A DNA stretch of 64,000 bases, taken from Cyanobacteriota bacterium. GTDB taxonomy: Bacteria > Cyanobacteriota > Cyanobacteriia > Cyanobacteriales > Nostocaceae. The stretch spans positions 32,001 through 96,000 of the forward strand of contig JBJOKS010000013.1 of the NCBI GenBank assembly GCA_046045965.1, in the 5' to 3' direction. Within the stretch, counting starts at the first letter, position 1; the number at the start of each line of letters is the position of its first letter. The notes beneath the pieces are model-generated. The model was given only the letters and a program-made list of their open reading frames with translations. It ran no database searches and had not been told where the DNA came from. The position numbers were made by a program, and so were the translations under genes. Positions 28,720 to 40,918 of the stretch are shown one piece after another.

Positions 28720-28806
28720 AGGGAATAGGGAATAGGGAATAGGGAATAGGTAAAAAATTTTCTTCCCAGTCCCCAGTCCCCAGTCCCCAGTCCCCAGTCC
28801 CCAGTC
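28720..28806. repeat. STRR pair (GGGAATA)n / (CCCCAGT)n between convergent genes
   Basis: Visible tandem repeats. Confidence 0.9.
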
Positions 28807-28809
28807 TCT

Positions 28810-29127
28810 TTAAACCAGTTGTTGCAAATGTTGAACTAACTGTGGTGCTTGAAGTACACCTTCAATCCTATCTACTGGTTGACCATTCTTAAATAATACC
28901 AAAGTTGGTAAAGCTGCAATTCCATACTGACTTGCTAATTGAGTGTATTTTTCGGTGTCAATTTTAACGATTCGTAACCGGTCTTTCAATTGCAGATTGA
29001 CTTGTTCTAAAATTGGAACCATCATCTGACAAGGACCACACCAGTCAGCATAAAAATCTACTAATACTGGGACATCAGAACCTGATAGCATTTCTTCAAA
29101 GCTGTTAAATTGCTTTTTAGTTGTCAT
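28810..29127 (-). CDS. trxA: Thioredoxin (probably y-type)
   Basis: DFYADWCGPCQ active site. Confidence 0.9.
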   Translation of the reverse strand: MTTKKQFNSFEEMLSGSDVPVLVDFYADWCGPCQMMVPILEQVNLQLKDRLRIVKIDTEKYTQLASQYGIAALPTLVLFKNGQPVDRIEGVLQAPQLVQHLQQLV

Positions 29128-29496
29128 GATGGCACACACCTATTTTTATTGTTTGTTTTTTAATGGTAATTCTTAGAAAATAGAATGGGTGTAATTTTAT
29201 GTTTTCTTGAGAAATGGTGCTGTCGGTTAATATTAGTTGATTTTCTAGATAAAATTATTAAGTATTTTTGCTAAAGTTAGAAATTTTTCTTAATTTGTGG
29301 TATTGGATAAATTCAATAAAAAAAACCTAAGTAAGCATCAATTGAGAAATATAGAATACAGACACAAATACTGATAAACAAGATAAGTTAAGTTTTTATT
29401 AATAACAATGTAATGATCACCAACATATTGTGATTTAGCACACTGGTCTTTCACCTGTGTTACATCAAAATTTACTTGAAAGTAAAAATTTTGACT

Positions 29497-32400
29497 ATGA
29501 GCATCATTCAGGTTGGTTCATTAGTGCATTCTCAGATTAATAGGTACGGTATCGGTAAGGTAGAAGAAATATATGCTACCGAAGCGAAAATAGAATATTT
29601 CCATTCTGTGAGTCAGCGTATATCCGAAATTTTACCTTTAGATACCCTATCTCACATCACGCTACAAAATCAAACTCGCTGTTATGTTTACCAAGAAACC
29701 CAATCTAGATGGATCACAGGTAGAATCTTCAATTGGGATCAAGAAAAACAAAAATATGAAGTTCACTTACCTGATAAAAAAGTTATTTTTGTAAGCGAAG
29801 AGGAAGTATCTGTACGTTGCAATCTTCCCTCAGTAAATCCGGTGGAAACTTTGGCTATAAAATGCCAAGAGACTCCGTATTTTCATGAAAGAAGATTAAA
29901 TTTTATGGAATCTTTAATTTCCCAACGTGCTGCTTGTCGGGGAATGACAGGATTAATTTCTGCTAATATCACACTTTATCCGCATCAAGTTGAAGTTATT
30001 CGTCGAGTTTTGGAAGATCCCATACAACGCTATTTATTAGCAGATGAGGTTGGATTAGGAAAAACCATAGAAGCTGGGGTAATTTTACGTCAATATCTTT
30101 TAGATGAAAAAAAAGGTCATGCAGTAGTTATTGTACCATCTTATTTATTAGGACAATGGCAGCAGGAATTAGAGCAAAAATTTTATATAGCTGATTTTTC
30201 TAAGCGAGTTGCAGTAATTACTATTGATGATCTCAAAAAAATTAATCCCAAAGTTAAGCTTGGTTTAGTAATTATCGATGAAGCTCATCATATTGCAGGT
30301 TTGGCAAATTCGCGAGATCCTATCCAAATGCAAAAATTTGAGCTTTGTCAACAAATTTGTCATCAGAGCGATCGCTTACTTTTATTATCAGCAACTCCCG
30401 TATTACATCATGAGCATGATTTCTTATCTATGCTGCATTTACTCGATCCGATGAATTATAAACTCAGTGATTTAGATGATTTTCGGAGCAAGATAGAAAA
30501 TCGTCAACAAATCGGCAGAATTTTACTTTGTTTCCGGGAAGGTGCAAAATCTTTTGTAATTAAATCTAATTTAAAACAACTGCGTAATTTATTCACCGAA
30601 GATGAATATTTGCTGAGTTTAGTTGATAATTTAGAAACTTGTTTGCAAGAAAATTCCTCTAATACAGATGAGATTATTCGCGCTATTCGTACTCACATTA
30701 GCGAAACATATCGGTTACACAGACGAATGTTGAGAAATCGTCGTGATGTAGTGGAAGATGTAGTTTTTCAACGGGATATTGTACCTAAAGAAGAATATGA
30801 TTTAGATGAGCGATCGCTAGATATTCATGAACTAATTGAACAATGGCGCGAACTAGCACCACAAACGGTAGAATATCAACGGATATTTGTATTATTAGTT
30901 CTAGCTTCTGGGACTTGGTTAGGTATTTTAGAACAAGTAATTAATGCTAGATTAAATGGTGAAAAATCAAATACACTGATTCAGGAATTTGGAGCAAAAG
31001 ATACCAAAATCTTAACAGAAACTCCCAAGTTTACTGAGGAATTAGAAATATTGCCATCCTTAGTGAAGATAATTAAGCAAAGTTCAGAGGAAGGAGAACG
31101 GATCAACCATTTACAAACATTGATTTTAAATCACTTAGGAATTTATTGTAAATTACCTGCAAGTGTTTTGAAAAATAAGCGAGAATTATTAACAAGGATA
31201 CAGCAGAGAATCCATAGACCAGTTGATTGTTTATTTCCAAAAATTGTCATATTTACATCTTTTTATCAAAGCTGTAAAGAAATAGTTAAATATTTAACCA
31301 ACAGCTTGGGAGAAAATGCAGTAGTTAGTCATCAATTGGAACATTCTCAACAACAAATAGAGCAGAATTTAAGTAAATTCAAAAATGATCCTAACTGCTT
31401 TATTTTGGTGTGTGATCGCACAGGAGAAGAAGGACATAACCTACAATTTGCAGACTGGTTAATTCATTTTGATTTACCTTTTTCTCCCAACCAACTAGAA
31501 CAAAGAATTGGTAGATTTGATCGCATCGGTGGTAAAATCAAATATCAATCCTTTGTATTTTTGGGGATCTTTTCCCAAGATAGTCCTCATAATGCTTGGT
31601 TTCAACTTTTGAAAACTGGTTTTTGTATTTTCCAACAATCAATTGCCAGTTTACAATTTTATGTAGATGGTAAAATATCAGAACTAGAAAAACTCTTATT
31701 TCAAAATGGTGCTACAGGCATATTAGAAATAATTGCACCAATTCAGACAGAAATTCAAGAAGAATTAATCAAAATTAGTGAACAACAAGCACTCGATGAA
31801 ATAGACTCTGTAGATGATAATTCTACGACATATTTTGAAGAATTAGATAACTATGATGCTAACCACAAACAAATACAAGCAACAGCAGAAGATTGGATTT
31901 GTCAAACATTAAATTTTCGTCGTAGTCAAGACATAGACAAAGAAGGAGTATTTAACTATTATCCCGGTAAAAATACCATCATTTCTGTTGATGAACTGCA
32001 AACACATTTCCATAAATCTATTAATAATGTTGGTACTTATAACCGCAGAATTGCCAATCAAAACACCAACATTAAATTATATAGAATTGGTGAAAACTTC
32101 ATAGATTCATTTGCTTCTTATCTCCGTTGGGATGATCGAGGACAAAGTTTTGCTTTTTGGAGATATGTACCATCTTGGAGTCAGACAGAAGATCAAGAAT
32201 GGTTTGGTTTTCAGTTTAATTACATTATCGAAACCGATTTATCCCAATGTACTAAAAATCCCTCAAAATTACCAGCTATTCGCAGATTAACAGATGGCTT
32301 ATTTCCACCTATTTTAAAAACCATATTTATTGATGCTCGCTGTGAACCGATGTCTATAGTGGAAGATGGAGAATTATTAACTATTTTGCAAACTCCATTT

Positions 32401-32769
32401 AAAGACAGAAACAGTCCATACAAAGATTACAATATAGCCAAAGAACGTCTATTTGTTCTTGATGAATTTATTGATTCTCATCAATGGACTAATTTTTGTT
32501 ATCGTGCTAGTCAATCAGCATTAAACCTGCTACATCAAAATCCAGATTTTCAACAAGCATCTGAATTAAGTGCTAAACGTGCCGAACAAAAACTTGGTAA
32601 AAGATTAGAACAACTGCGGTTAAGAAACCAAAACAATAATCAAAATCCAGAAGAAATAATCACAGAAAAAGAATTAAATCAAGCCATAATTGCAGGAATT
32701 AAAAAACCGCATATTCGGCTTGATTCTGTTGGGTTTATTGTAATTTCTGGACGCAATCTCAAGTTGTAA
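29497..32769 (+). CDS. dpdE: SNF2/RapA-like helicase, DpdE-like
   Basis: LADEVGLGKT, IDEAH, LSATP and QRIGRFDR motifs; size and gene order match dpdE. Confidence 0.75.
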   Translation: MSIIQVGSLVHSQINRYGIGKVEEIYATEAKIEYFHSVSQRISEILPLDTLSHITLQNQTRCYVYQETQSRWITGRIFNWDQEKQKYEVHLPDKKVIFVSEEEVSVRCNLPSVNPVETLAIKCQETPYFHERRLNFMESLISQRAACRGMTGLISANITLYPHQVEVIRRVLEDPIQRYLLADEVGLGKTIEAGVILRQYLLDEKKGHAVVIVPSYLLGQWQQELEQKFYIADFSKRVAVITIDDLKKINPKVKLGLVIIDEAHHIAGLANSRDPIQMQKFELCQQICHQSDRLLLLSATPVLHHEHDFLSMLHLLDPMNYKLSDLDDFRSKIENRQQIGRILLCFREGAKSFVIKSNLKQLRNLFTEDEYLLSLVDNLETCLQENSSNTDEIIRAIRTHISETYRLHRRMLRNRRDVVEDVVFQRDIVPKEEYDLDERSLDIHELIEQWRELAPQTVEYQRIFVLLVLASGTWLGILEQVINARLNGEKSNTLIQEFGAKDTKILTETPKFTEELEILPSLVKIIKQSSEEGERINHLQTLILNHLGIYCKLPASVLKNKRELLTRIQQRIHRPVDCLFPKIVIFTSFYQSCKEIVKYLTNSLGENAVVSHQLEHSQQQIEQNLSKFKNDPNCFILVCDRTGEEGHNLQFADWLIHFDLPFSPNQLEQRIGRFDRIGGKIKYQSFVFLGIFSQDSPHNAWFQLLKTGFCIFQQSIASLQFYVDGKISELEKLLFQNGATGILEIIAPIQTEIQEELIKISEQQALDEIDSVDDNSTTYFEELDNYDANHKQIQATAEDWICQTLNFRRSQDIDKEGVFNYYPGKNTIISVDELQTHFHKSINNVGTYNRRIANQNTNIKLYRIGENFIDSFASYLRWDDRGQSFAFWRYVPSWSQTEDQEWFGFQFNYIIETDLSQCTKNPSKLPAIRRLTDGLFPPILKTIFIDARCEPMSIVEDGELLTILQTPFKDRNSPYKDYNIAKERLFVLDEFIDSHQWTNFCYRASQSALNLLHQNPDFQQASELSAKRAEQKLGKRLEQLRLRNQNNNQNPEEIITEKELNQAIIAGIKKPHIRLDSVGFIVISGRNLKL

Positions 32770-32796
32770 TTTCAGATTCAACTGTGGTACTGAACA

Positions 32797-35286
32797 ATGA
32801 CAGAATCATTTATTAAAATGCGAGAAATTCTGAAAAATGCTAATATTCCTCAAGATGTAGATATTAGTAATTTTCCAGAACTTTGTTATCAACGGTTATT
32901 TAATGCTCTAAAATCTACATCAGGAACAGGAGACATAGCGAGTTTAATCCGTCATATTTTGCGATTTGAAGATGAAAAACAAGGGGGAAATTCTCAAACA
33001 TTATTACAAATTCCTAAAAAACCTAACTTTCCCCAGCGAGAAATTTGGGAAGATTGCGGGATGAATATAGTACGGGAAAATGAAGATAATTATCTCATTA
33101 CTGCTAATTATTGGCAACCAAAATGGCTAGATAATACAGATAAATATCCCCCTGATAGACCATTATTTGCAGAATCACCACGTCGTAATTATCAACCTGT
33201 TAATGGTGATCCATTTTTAAAAAAATTACAGTTAAATCAATATCGCAGTATTGGACAAAGAGAAGCGATTAGAGCAATTTTAACAGCACCAGAAAAATCA
33301 ACTTTAATCATTAACTTACCTACAGGATCAGGTAAAAGTTTATGCGCTCACTTACCAGCTTTATTAACGGATCAAAATCATGGTGTAAGTATTGTAGTTG
33401 TTCCCACAGTTGCTTTAGCAATAGATCAAGAAAGAGCATTAAAACCGTTTATTGATCATCCTACAGCTTATTATAGTGATGATTCCGAACAAGGACAAAT
33501 CAGAAGACAAGAAATACGCAAACGGATTTTCCAAGGAACACAAAAAATAATTTTTACTTCACCTGAAAGTTTAATATATAGCCTTTCTAGTTCTATTTAT
33601 GCAGCCGCTAAACAAGGAAAATTAAAATATTTTGTCATAGATGAAGCGCACATCATTGAACAATGGGGTAATGAATTTCGTCCTGCGTTTCAACAACTAC
33701 CAGGTTTAATTAGAGATTTATTAAAACTTACATCATTTACCACATTATTACTAACTGCAACATTAACACGATCTTGTTTAGATACTTTAGAATCATTATT
33801 TGGCAATAATTTACAAAATAATCTACAAGTTATATCTGCTGTTCAACTACGTCCAGAACCAGCATTTTGGTTTAAATACTGTAAAAGTCAAGCGGAGAGA
33901 AAAGAAAGACTAATTGAAGCAGTATATCATTTACCAAAACCCCTAATTATTTATACTACAAAAATAGCTGATGTGAAATATTGGAAGCAAGAATTATATA
34001 ATGCTGGATTTAAACGTTTAGGAATAATGACTGGTGAATCTAGCAAAGAAAAACGTCATGAAATTTTAGAAAATTGGCAACAAAAAAACATAGATATAGT
34101 CATAGCAACTTCAGCATTTGGTTTAGGTGTAGATCAAAGTGATGTTCGTGCAGTTATTCATCTTTGTATTCCTGAAAATATCAACCGATTTTATCAAGAA
34201 GTTGGTAGAGGTGGAAGAGATGGAAATGCTTGTTTATCACTGACATTGTATACAGATGAAGATTTTGATATAGCAAAAAAATTAAATGATGATTCTCCTA
34301 TCACAATTGAAAGAGGTTATCAACGTTGGTACAATATGTTTACTCATAAAGAAATATTGAGTAACGGTAAATTTAGAGTTAATATCAATCTTCCTCCTTC
34401 TTGGGAAGAAAAAGATATTGACATGACTAGCGATGAAAATAGAGCTTGGAATTTGAGAACATTAACATTATTGCAACGATCGCAAATAATTGATATTGAG
34501 TCAGAATCTAACTTTAATCAAATCAATAATACCTGTTTAATTTCCATCAAAAATGAAGAACATTTAGATCAATATATTTGGGAAACTCAAATTGAACCAT
34601 TAAGAATACAGCGTCAAAAGTGGAGTTATCAAATCTACCAACTGATGGAAGAAGCTCTCAACCCTAAACGCTGTATTTCTGAAATATTCACCCAAGCTTA
34701 TAGCATTCCTGCGCGTCATGGTGCATACCCTAGAAAAGCGGTCAAAGTTGCTCCCGCTTGTGGGGGTTGTCCTGTATGTCGGCAAAATAATAGACAGCCT
34801 TTTCAGCAAATTATGCCTTCACCTAGTCCTGTTTGGAAAAAACCTAAATTTCAACTTGGTACTAAGTTACAAAATTTGTTGTTAGATGAAAAATTGTTAC
34901 TAATTTTTTATAAATCTTTAAGTCAAAATACGCACAAAAACCTAAATAGTGTATTAAAATGCTTTATAGAACAAGGTATTATAAATATCGTGATTTCACC
35001 AGAATTTACAGAAATATCACTGTACTGGCAGGAGATCACATCAATAGTATTTTTATGGGAAAAATATCAACCTTGGCAAATGCCACAAGTTCCTACATTA
35101 ATTTTTCATTCTCCAGGAGAAAAACCTGATATTTACTTAACTCAAAATAGCAAATTTACAGCACCAAGAATCATTTTACTACCTTTAGATACTCCAGATC
35201 CTAGTCGTATGGATAGAAATTTAATAGATATTTTCCCAGGAAGACAGTTGAAATTTGACGTTTTTTGTCAGGAGATTAATATATGA
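32797..35286 (+). CDS. dpdF: RecQ-like SF2 helicase, DpdF-like
   Basis: LPTGSGKS, DEAH, TAT, ATSAFGLGVD, YQEVGRGGRDG and Zn-like CGGCPVC motifs. Confidence 0.75.
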   Translation: MTESFIKMREILKNANIPQDVDISNFPELCYQRLFNALKSTSGTGDIASLIRHILRFEDEKQGGNSQTLLQIPKKPNFPQREIWEDCGMNIVRENEDNYLITANYWQPKWLDNTDKYPPDRPLFAESPRRNYQPVNGDPFLKKLQLNQYRSIGQREAIRAILTAPEKSTLIINLPTGSGKSLCAHLPALLTDQNHGVSIVVVPTVALAIDQERALKPFIDHPTAYYSDDSEQGQIRRQEIRKRIFQGTQKIIFTSPESLIYSLSSSIYAAAKQGKLKYFVIDEAHIIEQWGNEFRPAFQQLPGLIRDLLKLTSFTTLLLTATLTRSCLDTLESLFGNNLQNNLQVISAVQLRPEPAFWFKYCKSQAERKERLIEAVYHLPKPLIIYTTKIADVKYWKQELYNAGFKRLGIMTGESSKEKRHEILENWQQKNIDIVIATSAFGLGVDQSDVRAVIHLCIPENINRFYQEVGRGGRDGNACLSLTLYTDEDFDIAKKLNDDSPITIERGYQRWYNMFTHKEILSNGKFRVNINLPPSWEEKDIDMTSDENRAWNLRTLTLLQRSQIIDIESESNFNQINNTCLISIKNEEHLDQYIWETQIEPLRIQRQKWSYQIYQLMEEALNPKRCISEIFTQAYSIPARHGAYPRKAVKVAPACGGCPVCRQNNRQPFQQIMPSPSPVWKKPKFQLGTKLQNLLLDEKLLLIFYKSLSQNTHKNLNSVLKCFIEQGIINIVISPEFTEISLYWQEITSIVFLWEKYQPWQMPQVPTLIFHSPGEKPDIYLTQNSKFTAPRIILLPLDTPDPSRMDRNLIDIFPGRQLKFDVFCQEINI

Positions 35287-36173
35287 GTGTCTTAAAAACT
35301 GAAAAAGCTATACCTAGTCGTATTCAGGCAATATTTAAATATTTACTGCATCAAAAACAACAGAGGGAGAAAAGGGAGAATTTAGAAAAAATCCTTTCTC
35401 CTGATAAATTAGTCGAAGGAAAGTATAAACCTCGTCCCATGTTTACTGATTCCTTACAAGAAAGTATTAAATGTGGATTATTAATAAGAGATGAGGATGA
35501 AATTGCCATTAATCCTGAATTACCAGAAAATGCTAGAAGTCCTGTAAATGGTTATCAACTATTACCGGATACTTTAGCTCATTTATTATTGGAATCTAAT
35601 AATAAAGATGAAGAAGATTTTGGTATTGTTTGTGCTTGGTTTTTGGCACAAGATATATATGAATCCTCTGGAAAATGGAAAGAATTTCAATATATGGTGA
35701 CAGATCAGGGAGTTTCTGAATCATTAGACTTAAAAATGTCTAGTGGTACACTTGCTGGTCAAATGGATGACTGGATGTGTTATTTAGGTTTTGCTTGGGG
35801 TCATGCTTTAGGAGGAACAAGAATTATCGTACCCGATCCTACAGCATATCTTAAACGTAATCTCAAACACTTATTTAATCCAGAAGATAATTATAAAATT
35901 CCTATCCACAATTTTATAGATAGATTAGCGAAAAAATGTCCTTTGTTTGAAACCGGAAAATTTAGAGATATCATAGAAGACAATATTGGTTATCGGAAAC
36001 CCAATTATTTATCAACCAGTACCGCTTTTGCTTTATTTCGTCTGCAATATGAAGGTTATATTCAGCTTATTAGAGAATCAGATGCGGATTTAATTCTACT
36101 ACCAAAAGCAAATAATGAAATTGATGATAGTAGTAAAATTTCTCATATTGTTTGGAAAGGTGAAAAATCATGA
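35283..36173 (+). CDS. dpdG: DpdG-like protein
   Basis: 296 aa; ATGA overlaps with both neighbours; position between DpdF- and DpdH-like genes. Confidence 0.65.
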   Translation: MSVLKTEKAIPSRIQAIFKYLLHQKQQREKRENLEKILSPDKLVEGKYKPRPMFTDSLQESIKCGLLIRDEDEIAINPELPENARSPVNGYQLLPDTLAHLLLESNNKDEEDFGIVCAWFLAQDIYESSGKWKEFQYMVTDQGVSESLDLKMSSGTLAGQMDDWMCYLGFAWGHALGGTRIIVPDPTAYLKRNLKHLFNPEDNYKIPIHNFIDRLAKKCPLFETGKFRDIIEDNIGYRKPNYLSTSTAFALFRLQYEGYIQLIRESDADLILLPKANNEIDDSSKISHIVWKGEKS

Positions 36174-39100
36174 CTTTTACAAAATTCGTTTGTTGGAATT
36201 TAGCAAATGTCCGTCAAGTGATGGATGTGGAAGCAACACAACCACCAAATCACATCTTTTTAGCTACCCATTATCCTATTAAGATGTATCGCAAGGAATT
36301 AATTAAAGCAAATGTATCAGGAATACCTTATAATGAGGAACAATTTTTAAAAGACTTTCTTGCAGAAAAGGACTTTGCTTTTGTACCAGTTTTAGGAAAT
36401 TCTGGTACTGGAAAATCTCATTTAATTCGTTGGTTAGCTGCTAAAATTCCATCAACAAATAAAAGAAGAGTATTATTAATTCCTAAAATTGGTACTAATT
36501 TAAAAGATATCATTAATTTGATTCTCCAAGATATGCAGGGAGAAAAATTTGATGAATATCGTCAGCGTGTGAATAAAGCTACAAATACATTAACAGAAAC
36601 TCAAGCAAGAGTACAATTACTGAATCAACTCGCAGCAGCAGTAGGTGATCATGGTCAACGAGATAAAAGTCAGTTAACAGAAGAGGAAATTTATTTAATT
36701 GAAAATTTAGATTCTTTATTATATGATCCATTTTTTCGCGAGTATTGGTTAAAAGATGATAGTATTATTGACCGTTTGGTTATTCATATTTTAGGGAAAA
36801 ATAACCAAATAGAAATTATTGAAGAAAGAAGGAAGTTTTCTTTACAAGATTTACCGTTAAATGTTCTAAATTTACAAAAAGCTGGAGCTAAAGCACAGGA
36901 ATTTTATGGTTTTCTGATTAGTGATGATGATATACAAAAAGCAACTATAGATTGGTTAAATAAACATCTGGATACAGCTATTACACAAGTTTTAAATTTA
37001 GGTCGTGAAGACTTAAAAACGTTAATGCGAGACGTGCGAGAAACTTTAGCAGAACAAGGAATTGAATTAGTTTTATTGATAGAAGATTTTGCAAAATTAC
37101 AAGGTATTGACCGAGAAGTATTAGAAGCTGTTTTAGCTAAACCCCAACAACCAGGAAGTAAACCTTTATCTGCAATGAGAACAGCGTTAGCTTGTACAAC
37201 TGGTTATTTTAAAGATTTAGATACTGTGCAACAACGGTTTACTTTTAGTGTTGACTTAGATGTTAATTTAGACATTGAAAACAATGATGAACAATCTTTA
37301 ATTACTGATATTGATATTCAAAAATTTACAGCTAATTATCTCAATGCTGTACGTTTAGAAGATGGGGAGATTTTACATTCAATAAATTATCAAGAACCTC
37401 TCAAAAATGCTTGTGATGACTGTGAACATCGTACCCCCTGTCATGCTGGTTTTGGTGCTGTTAATAATGTGGGATTATATCCCTTTAATAGTATTGCTTT
37501 AAAACAGATGTTTACTAAAGTTAATCAGAAAGAATTTACTAAGGAAACTAATATTCGCTTTTTGTTTAATCCCCGCATTCTGATTAAAGATGTCCTCAAA
37601 TACACTTTAGAAAATGGATTAAATAATATTGAAAATGGTCGTTTTCCCTCCCCTGCGCTACAAACACATTTTGGAAGAATGCGATTAAGTGCCATCATAC
37701 AACAAGATATTGAAACTAAAGATCCGCAAAATTATAATCGTCGTTTAGTGCTTTTGGATTTGTGGGATAATGGTAATCAATTATGTGATTTACCTCCTGA
37801 ATTACACACAGCTTTTAATTTACCTCCTTTAGGATTAACAATTACACAAAATAAACAATCTGAGCAAAACAAATCTGTAGTTAAAGAATCAAAGCAAAAA
37901 TCAGAATATAAAACTAACTCTGAACCTCTTGTTACTGCTGTAGAAGTTCCAGAAATACCTAAACATTTATTAGAAAAACTGAAAGTTTTAGATAATTGGA
38001 ATAATCAAAATATTTTACCACAAGAAATAGGTGGTAATCTGCGTAAACCTATTTTTGATGCGATTATTAATCGTATACAGTGGGAAAATGAGATGTTACT
38101 AAGAACAACATTTGCTAGTAGTTCTAGCAAGTATTTTAAACAAGGAAATATAGAATTTGATAGTCCTAGAAAGACTAGAAGAAATATTTCTGGTGTCAAA
38201 TTAACACTTCCTCTTAACCCAGATGATCGTCAAGATTTCCGGGATACTGCTATAGCTTTTCAGGGAATTTTATTATTTGAACATTATCAAAGCTGGAATT
38301 TTAAAGATAGCGATCGCTATTTCCTTACCTACAGCAAACAACTAGAAAAATGGTGTCAATACATCTTAGAAGCAATTCGTCTTTATCCCCGTGAATCTGG
38401 AGAACTTTGGAATCCTGTACCCGCAGCAGTGGAATTATTAGCAATTACCGCTACTATGTCAGGAAATGATACTACTTCTATAGATAAATTGATCAATGCT
38501 TTGTTTCTGGAAATAGATGATAAGAATAACCTCTATCGTGCTGCTAGTTGGAAAAAATTATTTAATACACTGCAAAGATACCAAAGCGAATTATTAGCAA
38601 TTCTTACCAGTCGCATTGCTTGTACTAAAGGAAGTTCTAAAGACTTTCAAATTATTGATTCTACTCAAATTATTGAACCATTAACAAAAATCATCAAATC
38701 AGGAAAACCAGAAGCAGAAATTCCTAATGATTGCGAATATGATATTTTCGATCCAATATATAAAGCACGCAAGCAAGTAGATCAACTACTAGAAACAGCA
38801 ATTAATGAAGAAACTACAAGACAATTAGAGATTTACCAACTACTATTATCAGAACTGGGAGAAAATTTTAAGAAAAAAGATGTGATAGAAAAATTAAAAA
38901 CTGCCATAGCAAAAGCAAGAGAAGCGGCAGTATTTTGCGGTAAGAAAAAACCTGATGAAATTACAGAATTATTAGAACAGTTTCAGCGCAATCGGATTTC
39001 TAAATATATGGAATCTATGCAGCGTTTACAGTCTGAAAAAGAAAATCCAAATATCAATCAAGGAAAAATATTACAATATCTAGCTGAAGATTATCAAAAA

Positions 39101-39289
39101 GTGATGACAGATACACAGAATTTTATTGATCATAATAATAACTTTCTTGATGCGTCTTTAAATGAAGTACAACAAAATATCCAACAACTAGAAAATACTG
39201 ATGGTGTTACTGTAGAAAATACCTATGGAATCATCGAAAATGGTTTAACTAATCTCCGATCTTTAATTTTAGAACTAAAAGGATCATAA
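36170..39289 (+). CDS. dpdH: Large P-loop ATPase, DpdH-like
   Basis: Walker A GNSGTGKS, Walker B LLIED, Cys cluster CDDC...C; 1039 aa. Confidence 0.72.
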   Translation: MTFTKFVCWNLANVRQVMDVEATQPPNHIFLATHYPIKMYRKELIKANVSGIPYNEEQFLKDFLAEKDFAFVPVLGNSGTGKSHLIRWLAAKIPSTNKRRVLLIPKIGTNLKDIINLILQDMQGEKFDEYRQRVNKATNTLTETQARVQLLNQLAAAVGDHGQRDKSQLTEEEIYLIENLDSLLYDPFFREYWLKDDSIIDRLVIHILGKNNQIEIIEERRKFSLQDLPLNVLNLQKAGAKAQEFYGFLISDDDIQKATIDWLNKHLDTAITQVLNLGREDLKTLMRDVRETLAEQGIELVLLIEDFAKLQGIDREVLEAVLAKPQQPGSKPLSAMRTALACTTGYFKDLDTVQQRFTFSVDLDVNLDIENNDEQSLITDIDIQKFTANYLNAVRLEDGEILHSINYQEPLKNACDDCEHRTPCHAGFGAVNNVGLYPFNSIALKQMFTKVNQKEFTKETNIRFLFNPRILIKDVLKYTLENGLNNIENGRFPSPALQTHFGRMRLSAIIQQDIETKDPQNYNRRLVLLDLWDNGNQLCDLPPELHTAFNLPPLGLTITQNKQSEQNKSVVKESKQKSEYKTNSEPLVTAVEVPEIPKHLLEKLKVLDNWNNQNILPQEIGGNLRKPIFDAIINRIQWENEMLLRTTFASSSSKYFKQGNIEFDSPRKTRRNISGVKLTLPLNPDDRQDFRDTAIAFQGILLFEHYQSWNFKDSDRYFLTYSKQLEKWCQYILEAIRLYPRESGELWNPVPAAVELLAITATMSGNDTTSIDKLINALFLEIDDKNNLYRAASWKKLFNTLQRYQSELLAILTSRIACTKGSSKDFQIIDSTQIIEPLTKIIKSGKPEAEIPNDCEYDIFDPIYKARKQVDQLLETAINEETTRQLEIYQLLLSELGENFKKKDVIEKLKTAIAKAREAAVFCGKKKPDEITELLEQFQRNRISKYMESMQRLQSEKENPNINQGKILQYLAEDYQKVMTDTQNFIDHNNNFLDASLNEVQQNIQQLENTDGVTVENTYGIIENGLTNLRSLILELKGS

Positions 39290-39291
39290 AT

Positions 39292-40017
39292 ATGTTAGTC
39301 GAAAAAGCAGATGAATTAATTCAATTATCTCAACGTAAAATTAAACTCCAAGAATATGCAAAAAATCTAGAAGCTTTTCAAACAAGACAAGAGCAAATTA
39401 ATAAAATGAACAGCGAATTACAACCAATAGTTGACGCTGTAAATACTTTTCGAGAGCAGCAAATTAGTAATTTTACCTTAGATCCAACTTTACAACAAAA
39501 GTTAGATCAGCTTTTGAATGATATTATCCAAGCTGAGGATAACTTTAATGTAAATCATATTTGGATTATTGATAATGAGAATTTTAATGGCAAAAGTTTA
39601 ATCAGAAGAATAGATTTTTTAAAAGAACAATTAGAAAAACAACTAAAAGCAGCTTGGAAAAATTATTTAACCAAAAATATGCCTAGCACTGATGAAGAAA
39701 TGTTGAATTTATTATCAAAAGTACCAGCATTTAGCTATGATATTCAAACCATCAGACAGTTAGATAAACAAATTAAACAAGTAAATTATCCTCAAGATCA
39801 ATCTCAATTTGAATTTTTAGTGAATAAAATTGAAGATTTAAAAAAGCGTTGGAATAATCTTAGTGCTGATAATGTTCCAGAAAAAGTTGTACAGTTACTC
39901 CGAGCAGCAGCAAACCCAGGAGGAGCATCATTAAATATGTTGACTCCAGAAGTTTTAGAATGGGTAAATAGACATGGTATAGCTAGTTCATTAAGAATTA
40001 GATTAATCTCCCAATAA
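39292..40017 (+). CDS. dpdI: Coiled-coil protein, DpdI-like
   Basis: 241 aa helical protein starting 2 nt after the ATPase; call is positional. Confidence 0.55.
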   Translation: MLVEKADELIQLSQRKIKLQEYAKNLEAFQTRQEQINKMNSELQPIVDAVNTFREQQISNFTLDPTLQQKLDQLLNDIIQAEDNFNVNHIWIIDNENFNGKSLIRRIDFLKEQLEKQLKAAWKNYLTKNMPSTDEEMLNLLSKVPAFSYDIQTIRQLDKQIKQVNYPQDQSQFEFLVNKIEDLKKRWNNLSADNVPEKVVQLLRAAANPGGASLNMLTPEVLEWVNRHGIASSLRIRLISQ

Positions 40018-40156
40018 TACTAGTATCAATCTCCTAAAATCTTCTTTATAAAGGGGGACTAAATTACTTAAATTATCCATGTTTAAGTAAAGGATTTAGG
40101 GGTATCGAAAACTTTATGACACATCACCAACAAATCTTAAAATATCCTCTTAGATA

Positions 40157-40918
40157 TTAATCCAATAAATCTGGTTCTTTTCTTACAATCATCTCATACA
40201 AAGATTGAAAAGAAAACCAACCCAGTGCATGAGAACCAACCTGACCATAGGTAAAACGAGCCGTTTCTGAATCAATAATAACTGGTTTTCCTGCTGCTTC
40301 AGCCATCAATTGAGCTTGACAACAACGATCCATAGCAATAAACCACCATATAGTTTCATCTACTGTATGACCAACAGTTAATAAACCATGATTTCTTAAA
40401 ATAATTGCCTTTTTTTCTCCTAAAGTAGCCGCAATGCGATCGCCTTCCTTAGTCTCATACACCACCCCAGTATAGTCATCAAATAAAGCATGATCTTCAT
40501 AAAAAGCACAAGCATCTTGAGTTATCGGATCAAGCAACCGTCCCAAACTTGACCAACTTTTACCATAAAGTGAATGAGCATGAGCGGCCGCATTTACATC
40601 AGGTCTAGCTTGATGAATTCGGGAATGAATAGCAAAAGCTGCACCATTTACAGGTCTATTTCCTTGAACAACTTCACCTTGATCATTGACTAACAAAAGA
40701 TCAGATACGCGAATATGACCAAAATACATTCCTAATGGATTAACCCAAAAACAATCATCAAATTCAGGATCACGGACTGTAATATGTCCCGCTATTCCTT
40801 CATCAAAATTATAGCGAGCAAATAGGCGAAATGCAGCAGCTAACCGTTGTTTACGGTGTAGTCTTTCATCTTCTACACGCTCAAATTTAGGTGGGTTGGC
40901 AAAGTTCTCATTTGTCAT
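40157..40918 (-). CDS. Class II aldolase/adducin family protein
   Basis: GHITVRDP, IHSRIH, HAHS and LRNHGLLT motifs. Confidence 0.9.
   Translation of the reverse strand: MTNENFANPPKFERVEDERLHRKQRLAAAFRLFARYNFDEGIAGHITVRDPEFDDCFWVNPLGMYFGHIRVSDLLLVNDQGEVVQGNRPVNGAAFAIHSRIHQARPDVNAAAHAHSLYGKSWSSLGRLLDPITQDACAFYEDHALFDDYTGVVYETKEGDRIAATLGEKKAIILRNHGLLTVGHTVDETIWWFIAMDRCCQAQLMAEAAGKPVIIDSETARFTYGQVGSHALGWFSFQSLYEMIVRKEPDLLD

Follow-up and report, generated by a model that had tools for sequence, protein, structure and literature searches.

We describe a block of five adjacent genes, dpdE to dpdI, in a 64,000-nt stretch of the cyanobacterial contig JBJOKS010000013.1 (assembly GCA_046045965.1, 92.2% complete in 107 contigs); this whole stretch is referred to as the window. 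The genes belong to families known from the Dpd island, dpdA-K, and they stand here without dpdA, dpdD, dpdJ or dpdK, none of which was found in the rest of the assembly. The observation is real and more general than one genome: the same five-gene form recurs in other cyanobacteria under purifying selection, and in two loci it bears the scars of deletion from a full operon. We consider the chances about even that dpdE-I is an autonomous, nuclease-free, ATP-driven module, resembling the bacteriophage exclusion (BREX) systems and directed against phage or plasmid DNA, to which dpdJ-K-D would be an optional cutting arm. An earlier reading of the block, made from its letters without database searches (the sequence-only reading), had left three options, namely a split Dpd system, a restriction arm paired with a different DNA mark, or a stand-alone motor module. 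The last is the best supported of the three, since the five genes turn up repeatedly as an intact set that evolves under purifying selection.

Gene content of the block and of its genome

The five genes, with their scores (bits) against the NCBIfam models, are as follows.

29497..32769, + strand: dpdE, 1090 amino acids (aa) from ATG; NF041062, 1085 bits against a cut-off of 500
32797..35286, + strand: dpdF, 829 aa; NF041063, 905 bits against a cut-off of 550
35283..36173, + strand: dpdG, 296 aa; NF041064, 127 bits against a cut-off of 80
36170..39289, + strand: dpdH, 1039 aa; NF041065, 890 bits against a cut-off of 450; Pfam AAA_22
39292..40017, + strand: dpdI, last gene of the unit, 241 aa; NF041066, 45.5 bits against a cut-off of 150, E 9e-12

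For dpdE, dpdF, dpdG and dpdH, the best PADLOC matches agree with the NCBIfam naming. The fifth gene matches the DpdI model over its full length, though under the cut-off, and is 40-60% identical to the gene in the equivalent position in 25 relatives; judged by its sequence, this position and this identity confirm it as a divergent dpdI. The gene names of the sequence-only reading thus hold for all five genes. Its account of five intact, coupled open reading frames (ORFs) proved exact as well, the junctions being, in order, a 27-nt gap, two ATGA overlaps and a 2-nt gap.

The missing partner genes were sought in the whole assembly with profile models and with tblastn, using as queries 37 DpdJ, 12 DpdK, 9 DpdD and 3 DpdA proteins or fragments from relatives, together with 8 proteins of an unlabelled gene found downstream of dpdA. 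The best match to the DpdA model scores 22.6 bits against a cut-off of 200, and tblastn with cyanobacterial DpdA gave none. The DpdJ model found only generic helicase matches of 44-53 positions, at no more than 25.5 bits against a cut-off of 800. DpdK, a phospholipase D (PLD)-family nuclease, and DpdD have no match in the genome by model or by tblastn. Over all tblastn queries, the only match was a generic helicase stretch of 55 residues, with no orthologue of J, K, D, A or the gene downstream of dpdA; a relative's DpdA fusion bearing DUF6884 likewise found nothing in the genome. The absence of dpdA and of dpdJ/K/D, the latter asserted in the sequence-only reading for the block itself, therefore extends to the assembly. 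A single DndB-family match, from searches that used no models specific to DpdB or DpdC, adjoins dndC, and the one queC match (C37) has no dpd neighbour. Neither PglZ (PF08665; control positive in 2 of 14) nor DUF1998 (PF09369; control positive in 8 of 14) was found in the genome. DpdJ itself has lost DUF1998 (10.1101/2025.09.15.676423), so that the latter negative bears on other clades only. No adenine methyltransferase or phosphorothioation gene is linked to the block, whose neighbours encode a thioredoxin and an aldolase.

The same models do detect these genes in other genomes. Our sample consisted of 389 genomes of the family and a 401-genome sample of the phylum, with dpdH in 42 and 16 of them, respectively, or 50 different dpdH-positive genomes overall. 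Among these 50, DpdA exceeds its cut-off in 21, and there are matches to DpdJ in 35 (over the cut-off in 33 of the 42 family relatives, with distant forms in 2 genomes more), to DpdK in 32 and to DpdD in 30. It is therefore highly improbable that the window belongs to a Dpd system of the usual kind that is merely split, with its remaining genes in unassembled parts of the genome. The incompleteness and fragmentation of the assembly would allow for this, and in two genomes (G359 and G275) dpdA does lie apart from a block that is dpdJ-less or fragmentary. However, the assembly would have to have missed each of four separate genes, and the closest relatives, which are 99% complete and one of which is in 2 contigs, also lack DpdA, DpdJ, DpdK and DpdD. 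Moreover, the DNA after dpdI is assembled and continues into the aldolase gene, and a contig from an independent sequencing run (X4, record 15) passes through the dpdI stop.

Recurrence, origin and selection of the short form

The 50 dpdH-positive genomes divide by architecture into 17 with both dpdA and dpdJ, 2 with dpdA and a distant dpdJ-like gene, 18 with dpdJ and no dpdA, 2 with dpdA and no dpdJ, and 11 with none of A, J, K and D, among which is G079 (2 contigs, 99% complete); dpdA is thus missing in 29. The 11 include one genome, G363, whose DpdA match falls under the cut-off. When only good assemblies are considered (completeness of 90% or more, contamination of 5% or less), the five-gene form stands alone in 10 of 44. 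In gene maps of the dpdJ-less cases, the order E-F-G-H-I is followed directly by unrelated genes.

The 18 genomes with dpdJ and no dpdA over its cut-off carry dpdE-J, mostly together with K and D, and two plasmids of Nostoc and Agrobacterium (L093 and L095) show no dpdA in their displayed flanks. Going by gene content, the nuclease-bearing arm persists also without the deazaguanine mark.

The short form is the only one found in a Microcoleus-like genus, g70: of its 79 genomes, 20 have dpdH and none has dpdJ. DpdA, DpdK and DpdD were searched for genome-wide in four of the 20, and no J, K, D or A lies within up to 20 kb around 15 further loci. Of 19 g70 loci examined (G761 being left out), 18 are fully visible, 15 of them with all five genes whole and 3 broken, and the remaining one is truncated at the end of its contig. 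Most occupy one chromosomal site with a common sequence after the dpdI stop; four (L075, L116, L117 and L119) lie elsewhere. In our first set of fully visible loci, from which six contig-cut loci were dropped, 10 of 12 dpdJ-less blocks are whole, against 21 of 33 with dpdJ (Fisher p 0.29), where four of the 12 counted as broken share a shortened dpdE and may represent a variant. These four (L007, L011, L015 and L021) contain dpdA, and their dpdE, at 78-83% of full length, is either a variant or the product of one inherited deletion.

Outside the sampled genomes, 14 metagenome loci have dpdJ after dpdI in 8 cases and lack it in the available 1.5-8 kb in 4, the other 2 being too short. Matches to the block occur in 11 plasmid records, and four of the 5 examined have dpdJ or a distant DpdJ-like helicase adjoining dpdI; among 50,697 phage records there is 1 weak match. 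A Methylobacterium plasmid carrying dpdA and F-G-H-I without E is not counted as dpdJ-less, on account of a DpdJ-like stretch (27%) in a convergent gene. A plasmid island (L096, NZ_CP017427.1) consists of dpdB-A-B, queEDC and a transporter gene, and then F-G-H-I without dpdE, facing a gene for a helicase-like protein of 2173 aa.

On a quick tree of 42 DpdH sequences, fragmentary ones excluded, the dpdJ-less label changes 7 times, at least 6 of these changes being forced. Two clades lack dpdJ throughout: the g70 group (6 rows), which clusters with two named Microcoleus records (both left out of the g70 genome counts), and the window together with genus g22 (3 rows, or 4 in another quick tree), a grouping of the window DpdH with dpdJ-less g22 that has a Shimodaira-Hasegawa-like approximate likelihood ratio (SH-aLRT) of 100. 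Two loci retain traces of how the short form came about. In L016, the first 77 nt past dpdI run directly into the 40 codons that end dpdK, and in L041 a short tail of dpdJ is retained. These scars show that in two loci the short form arose by deletion from a full dpdE-K,D operon. The window and 12 further dpdJ-less loci show no remnant of J, K or D in the 2.5 kb past dpdI.

The ratio of nonsynonymous to synonymous substitution rates (dN/dS), computed by a counting method over pooled genes, is 0.19-0.24 within g22 and 0.28 between the window and g22. In the g70 group it is 0.24-0.34 at dS of 0.14-0.51 (15 pairs of six loci), and in pairs with dpdJ it is 0.14-0.29 (13 pairs). Since most g70 loci share their site and the sequence after dpdI, the loss of J preceded their divergence; thus, the purifying selection observed there postdates that loss.

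Several further architectures were seen around dpdE-I. In two loci (L076 and L077), dpdA and dpdE-I are followed by an HNH gene, a UvrD-type helicase gene and a distant DpdJ-like gene, which replace dpdJ-K-D. Several full operons are followed downstream by a second DpdJ-like helicase, divergent and about 1660 aa long, and by a likewise divergent DpdK-like gene, for example at the following positions.

G003:C17:174030-179436, second DpdJ-like helicase
G260:C59:47909-53312, second DpdJ-like helicase
G354:C248:150506-155903, second DpdJ-like helicase

Between dpdJ and dpdK, loci L005-L044 have a hot spot of extra genes, including a GmrSD-AAA-NsnC trio, a reverse transcriptase, a type IIG-like methylase, AIPR, HNH and DUF4365 genes. 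Some other neighbours carry names that we assume from sequence motifs (a kinase fragment, a gas vesicle gene, and the que genes in L080). One locus (L064:12024-14479) has eight tandem ORFs of 71 aa with identical N-terminal sequence, which we take to encode gas-vesicle-protein-like products.

The five proteins and the readings they allow

The proteins of the window keep every motor motif: Walker A and Walker B, DEAH and motif VI, along with the Cys cluster in DpdF. DpdE is a RapA/BrxHII-like SNF2 ATPase, with the Walker A lysine at K189 and DEAH at 261-264, and its best sequence matches in PDB are RapA. The predicted model of residues 745-1090 (346 residues) also resembles RapA, with Foldseek E 1.7e-9 and a VIA Z of 9.3 (root-mean-square deviation, rmsd, 9.3; 292 residues aligned), in a VIA match list that is dominated by the first helix of this tail and scarcely probes its other parts. 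The restriction-endonuclease-like domain of RapA and BrxHII has been described as inactive (PMC12839542).

DpdF is a RecQ-like helicase (Walker A K180, DEAH, and the Cys cluster CGGCPVC at 655). Past residue 662 only 5 columns are invariant among 33 sequences, and the structural neighbours of residues 640-829 are DpdF-like proteins at template-modelling (TM) scores of 0.58-0.67, followed by P-loop-type clusters at a weak 0.45-0.52. As a lead only, then, this poorly conserved C-terminal domain is predicted to have a degenerate P-loop-type fold.

DpdG is predicted to be a winged-helix DNA-binding protein, probably with several winged helices in tandem. Its structure model is weak (predicted local distance difference test, pLDDT, 58.7). 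For residues 6-97 the structural matches are winged-helix proteins (Z of 7.8 for the best, with 68 residues aligned at rmsd 2.5), a level of Z that may reflect a common arrangement only, and there are weak structural matches to tandem winged-helix proteins. Foldseek gave no match at E 0.001, a profile of 127 sequences found no relative in PDB, and BrxA and SspB are absent from the structural matches listed, though this does not exclude them. Because W119 and D267 are the only invariant columns among the 127 homologues, sequence conservation argues against DpdG being an enzyme.

DpdH is a P-loop ATPase, with K82 in Walker A and Walker B LIEDF at 303; it matches no BrxC model, and a profile search returned no PDB relative.

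The sequence-only reading had recognised no nuclease in the block, and indeed none is named in the five proteins by Pfam, NCBIfam or PADLOC; structure models covered the DpdE tail, DpdG and the DpdF C-terminus. Methylase models found no match among the five. In four loci, one of them dpdJ-less, a 3'-5' exonuclease domain (PF01612) is fused ahead of DpdI (L005:11102-12457, L018:11132-12490, L022:11169-12527 and L032:11239-12630), and the window genome contains a free-standing homologue of this domain (G000:C20:64843-65442; 49% identity over 203 aa). The fusions and the free-standing homologue hint that a dpdE-I unit can recruit a nuclease at the position of dpdI.

How does the unit compare with known systems? 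With the Dpd island of Salmonella enterica sv. Montevideo (PMC10164549, PMC5699537) it shares five genes, in the E-F-G-H-I order of full cyanobacterial operons, but it lacks dpdA, the YprA-family helicase DpdJ, the PLD nuclease DpdK and DpdD, and contains no dpdB or dpdC. Its likeness to the core of type 3 BREX and BREX-related systems (PMC12839542) is one of analogy: one preprint treats DpdE as the counterpart of BrxHII, and DpdH-I as that of BrxC ('DpdHI/BrxC', 10.1101/2025.09.15.676423), giving a BrxC-type ATPase and a BrxHII/RapA-type helicase. To these might be added a BrxA-like role for the winged helices of DpdG (a generic winged helix) and a BrxB-like role for the possible degenerate P-loop domain of DpdF. 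Unlike BREX, the unit has no methyltransferase, its genome has no PglZ, and a RecQ-type helicase is found instead. With BRIGADE, ARMADA and DISARM (10.1101/2025.09.15.676423) it shares the BrxHII/RapA-type helicase, and with BRIGADE also DpdG and DpdH-I; the YprA-family helicase that defines those systems is absent here, and there is no linked methylase or nuclease. In short, the unit is built from Dpd families, yet the absence of dpdA, D, J and K sets it apart from Dpd, and that of PglZ and a methylase sets it apart from BREX.

All steps of the proposed mechanism beyond gene content and selection are drawn by analogy with BREX. DpdH and DpdI would form a BrxC-type scaffold ATPase, DpdG would bind DNA through its winged helices in a BrxA-like role, and DpdE would act as a translocase of the RapA/BrxHII type. 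DpdF would be a RecQ-type helicase, whose degenerate C-terminal domain may serve as a sensor. The complex might load on invader DNA by its structure (ends, forks or transcription complexes) rather than by sensing a missing deazaguanine mark, and would then stall or unwind that DNA, leaving its degradation to host nucleases. On this view, the restriction half of Dpd would fall into two modules that can be separated, E-I being one and J-K-D, as an optional cutting arm, the other.

A number of points weigh against an autonomous module. No effector was recognised in the five proteins, the methylase and PglZ that BREX requires are both missing, and in Salmonella the restriction phenotype has been assigned to dpdD-K jointly, with single roles unknown (PMC10164549). 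Moreover, dN/dS is slightly higher without dpdJ, and dpdI looks relaxed in g70 (0.37-1.18, compared with 0.19-0.43 in pairs with dpdJ). The window DpdE keeps 430 of 500 columns conserved in dpdJ-containing loci, and DpdF 317 of 365 (losses of 14% and 13%), whereas leave-one-out retention within the dpdJ-containing loci is in every case at least 0.94. Identities in g70 are uneven from gene to gene, so recombination may blur the reading of dN/dS. Since the branch of the window has no close relative bearing the block, selection after the loss of J rests there on parsimony. Finally, besides the scarred L016 and L041, loci L018, L073, L121 and L128 are broken, so that part of the dpdJ-less set represents decay.

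If such decay were general, the block would be the slowly eroding leftover of a full dpdE-K,D operon from which a toxic J-K-D arm had been deleted. The junction at the dpdK end in L016 and the dpdJ tail in L041, the breakage of 3 of 18 g70 loci and of L018, the somewhat raised dN/dS and loss of conserved columns, and the long end branch of the window DpdH (0.34) are all in keeping with this account. We nevertheless judge it quite unlikely. The stretch past dpdI is clean of J, K and D in the window and the 12 further loci named above; 10.5 kb of five open frames have been kept in g70 across dS of up to 0.5 after the shared junction; two g22 genomes with a common junction show dN/dS of 0.19 at dS 0.06; and breakage is no rarer among the loci that have dpdJ.

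A different possibility is that the unit is a restriction arm which reads a host mark (most likely the phosphorothioate made by dndBCDE) and acts on DNA that lacks it, perhaps with the help of a nuclease of the host. The sequence-only reading had pointed to dndBCDE as genes to look for elsewhere in the genome, and they are present: dndB-C-D-E is intact at G000:C21, beside an HNH gene, a gene of 157 aa and a PbeC-like ATPase gene (L049:8757-14438, L050:673-6662). On another contig, a TIGR04095 helicase exceeds its cut-off (G000:C34:11631-12977), and together with the dnd genes it makes up a scattered phosphorothioate system. A mark that could serve as a self signal is thus available in the host. 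That 18 of the 50 genomes keep dpdJ without dpdA suggests that the deazaguanine mark is often dispensable here, and in one genome (G002; L070, L005; G002:C333) a full dpdE-K,D operon lies directly beside dndB-C-D, with dpdA on another contig alongside a DpdJ-like paralogue. The dnd genes have also been reported as enriched in Nostocales, with dndFGH absent (PMC8569181).

Of the 401 genomes in the phylum sample, 121 have dndE; of the 16 with dpdH, 15 do. The exception, G429, has dpdA, and all 12 dpdA-less dpdH-positive genomes have dndE. In these lineages, however, dnd comes close to fixation (dndC in 377 of the 389 genomes of the family; dndE in 46 of 46 genomes of family f1 and 26 of 26 of family f3), and the overlap is confounded by descent. 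Co-occurrence was therefore discarded as an uninformative test of a shared mark: it is only compatible with one, and lends no support. Furthermore, of the PbeABCD and DndFGH partners with which dnd phosphorothioation is known, the genome already has some of the Pbe type (PbeC-like at C21, TIGR04095 at C34), dnd is unlinked to the block, no dnd genes occur among the annotated neighbours of the examined dpdJ-less loci, and the five proteins score far higher as Dpd proteins than as Pbe proteins. We regard the reading of a host mark as unlikely, and give the same low weight to its wider form, in which the restriction half of Dpd would be two separable machines and dpdE-I alone an undescribed nuclease-free defence system that, in Cyanobacteriales, uses host phosphorothioate in place of 7-deazaguanine and serves as restriction partner to dnd in a lineage reported to lack dndFGH.

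Setting in the genome and meaning

The features that surround the block are listed below.

28810-29139, - strand: thioredoxin gene, divergent flank
29217..40131: extent of the island relative to G312, of the same genus; flank matches stop at 29216 and restart at 40132
29408..29496, + strand: leader upstream of dpdE; 70% identity over 114 nt with L027, extending into the start of dpdE
40157-40918, - strand: class II aldolase gene, convergent flank

Both flanking genes are as the sequence-only reading had named them. The leader, which is common to the closest dpdJ-less relatives, is likely to be a promoter or leader region of the operon, to judge from this conservation; consensus scans for promoters (58 versus 55) and for terminators (5 versus 5) gave results at chance level. 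Short intergenic repeats at 28720-28806 and 40046-40156, the latter right behind dpdI, are dispersed in many copies in congeners and other relatives.

Sequencing runs bear on the integrity of the assembly. The DNA runs X3 and X4, which come from two other studies, reach 30 of 30 bins of the block, the listed differences numbering 0 and 2, respectively, and X6 reaches 24 of 30; none of the runs has a single piece over the whole block. Contigs of the metatranscriptome X5 fall on 20 of 30 bins, chiefly in the 5' half of dpdE, and such contigs show neither level nor strand, with DNA possibly in the library, so that they do not demonstrate transcription. Runs X7-X10 have small shares or none.

The thioredoxin-side and aldolase-side matches lie about 860 bp apart in G312, which is an empty site in a congener; in G313, also of the genus, the left-flank match extends about 100 nt further; and dpdH is found in 0 of the 3 other genomes of the genus. 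The GC content of the block is 32.0%, compared with 38.1% for the genome, and lies under the 1st percentile (33.3%) of 444 windows of equal size. The sequence-only reading had taken three highly iterated palindrome (HIP1) sites as a sign of long residence in cyanobacteria. The sites are there, at 30368, 30810 (given as 30809) and 38310, and they fit a cyanobacterial past of the block; they are 3 where 5.4 are expected from the genome-wide density, which does not speak for long residence in this lineage. Given the low GC content, the few HIP1 sites, the lack of dpdH in the congeners and the empty site of G312, acquisition from another cyanobacterium is a likelier history than long residence.

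Defence genes are typically patchy in occurrence, located at several sites and low in GC content, with the site empty in a related genome, and the block matches this pattern. This matters for a further alternative, namely that the unit is retained for genome maintenance (rescue of forks, removal of stalled RNA polymerase, or repair after UV or desiccation) rather than for defence. The likeness of the C-terminal part of DpdE to RapA and of DpdF to RecQ, the location of dpdJ-less loci amid housekeeping genes and outside defence islands, and the clustering of g70 with named Microcoleus records would accord with such a role. Against it stand the patchiness itself (42 of 389 family genomes, 20 of 79 in g70 and none of three congeners) with differing sites, the homologues on plasmids, and the fact that each of the five families was already known as part of the Dpd island; we hold it to be very unlikely.

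In the literature, dpdEFJK have been described as variably present among dpdA islands, with the restriction enzyme unknown (PMC5699537). One survey found 146 Dpd compositions and required dpdAB (10.1101/2025.02.24.639861), and another was anchored on the YprA helicase (10.1101/2025.09.15.676423); to surveys so anchored, the five-gene form would be invisible. A full-text search found no description of a dpdE-I unit that lacks both dpdA and dpdJ, within a body of text that leaves most subscription papers outside, and supplementary tables of the preprints may list related architectures.

Which of the dpd genes restrict, and how, is still open in the available literature (PMC10164549, PMC5699537). 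Natural genomes split the restriction half at one seam, between E-I and J-K-D, and E-I is kept under selection without any deazaguanine gene. This casts doubt on the notion that dpdD-K form a single arm dependent on dpdA-C, and it makes dpdE-I a natural minimal unit for the study of Dpd restriction. In the Microcoleus-like genus, where it is the sole form found and is carried by about a quarter of the genomes, dpdE-I may be a missed defence system of those cyanobacteria.

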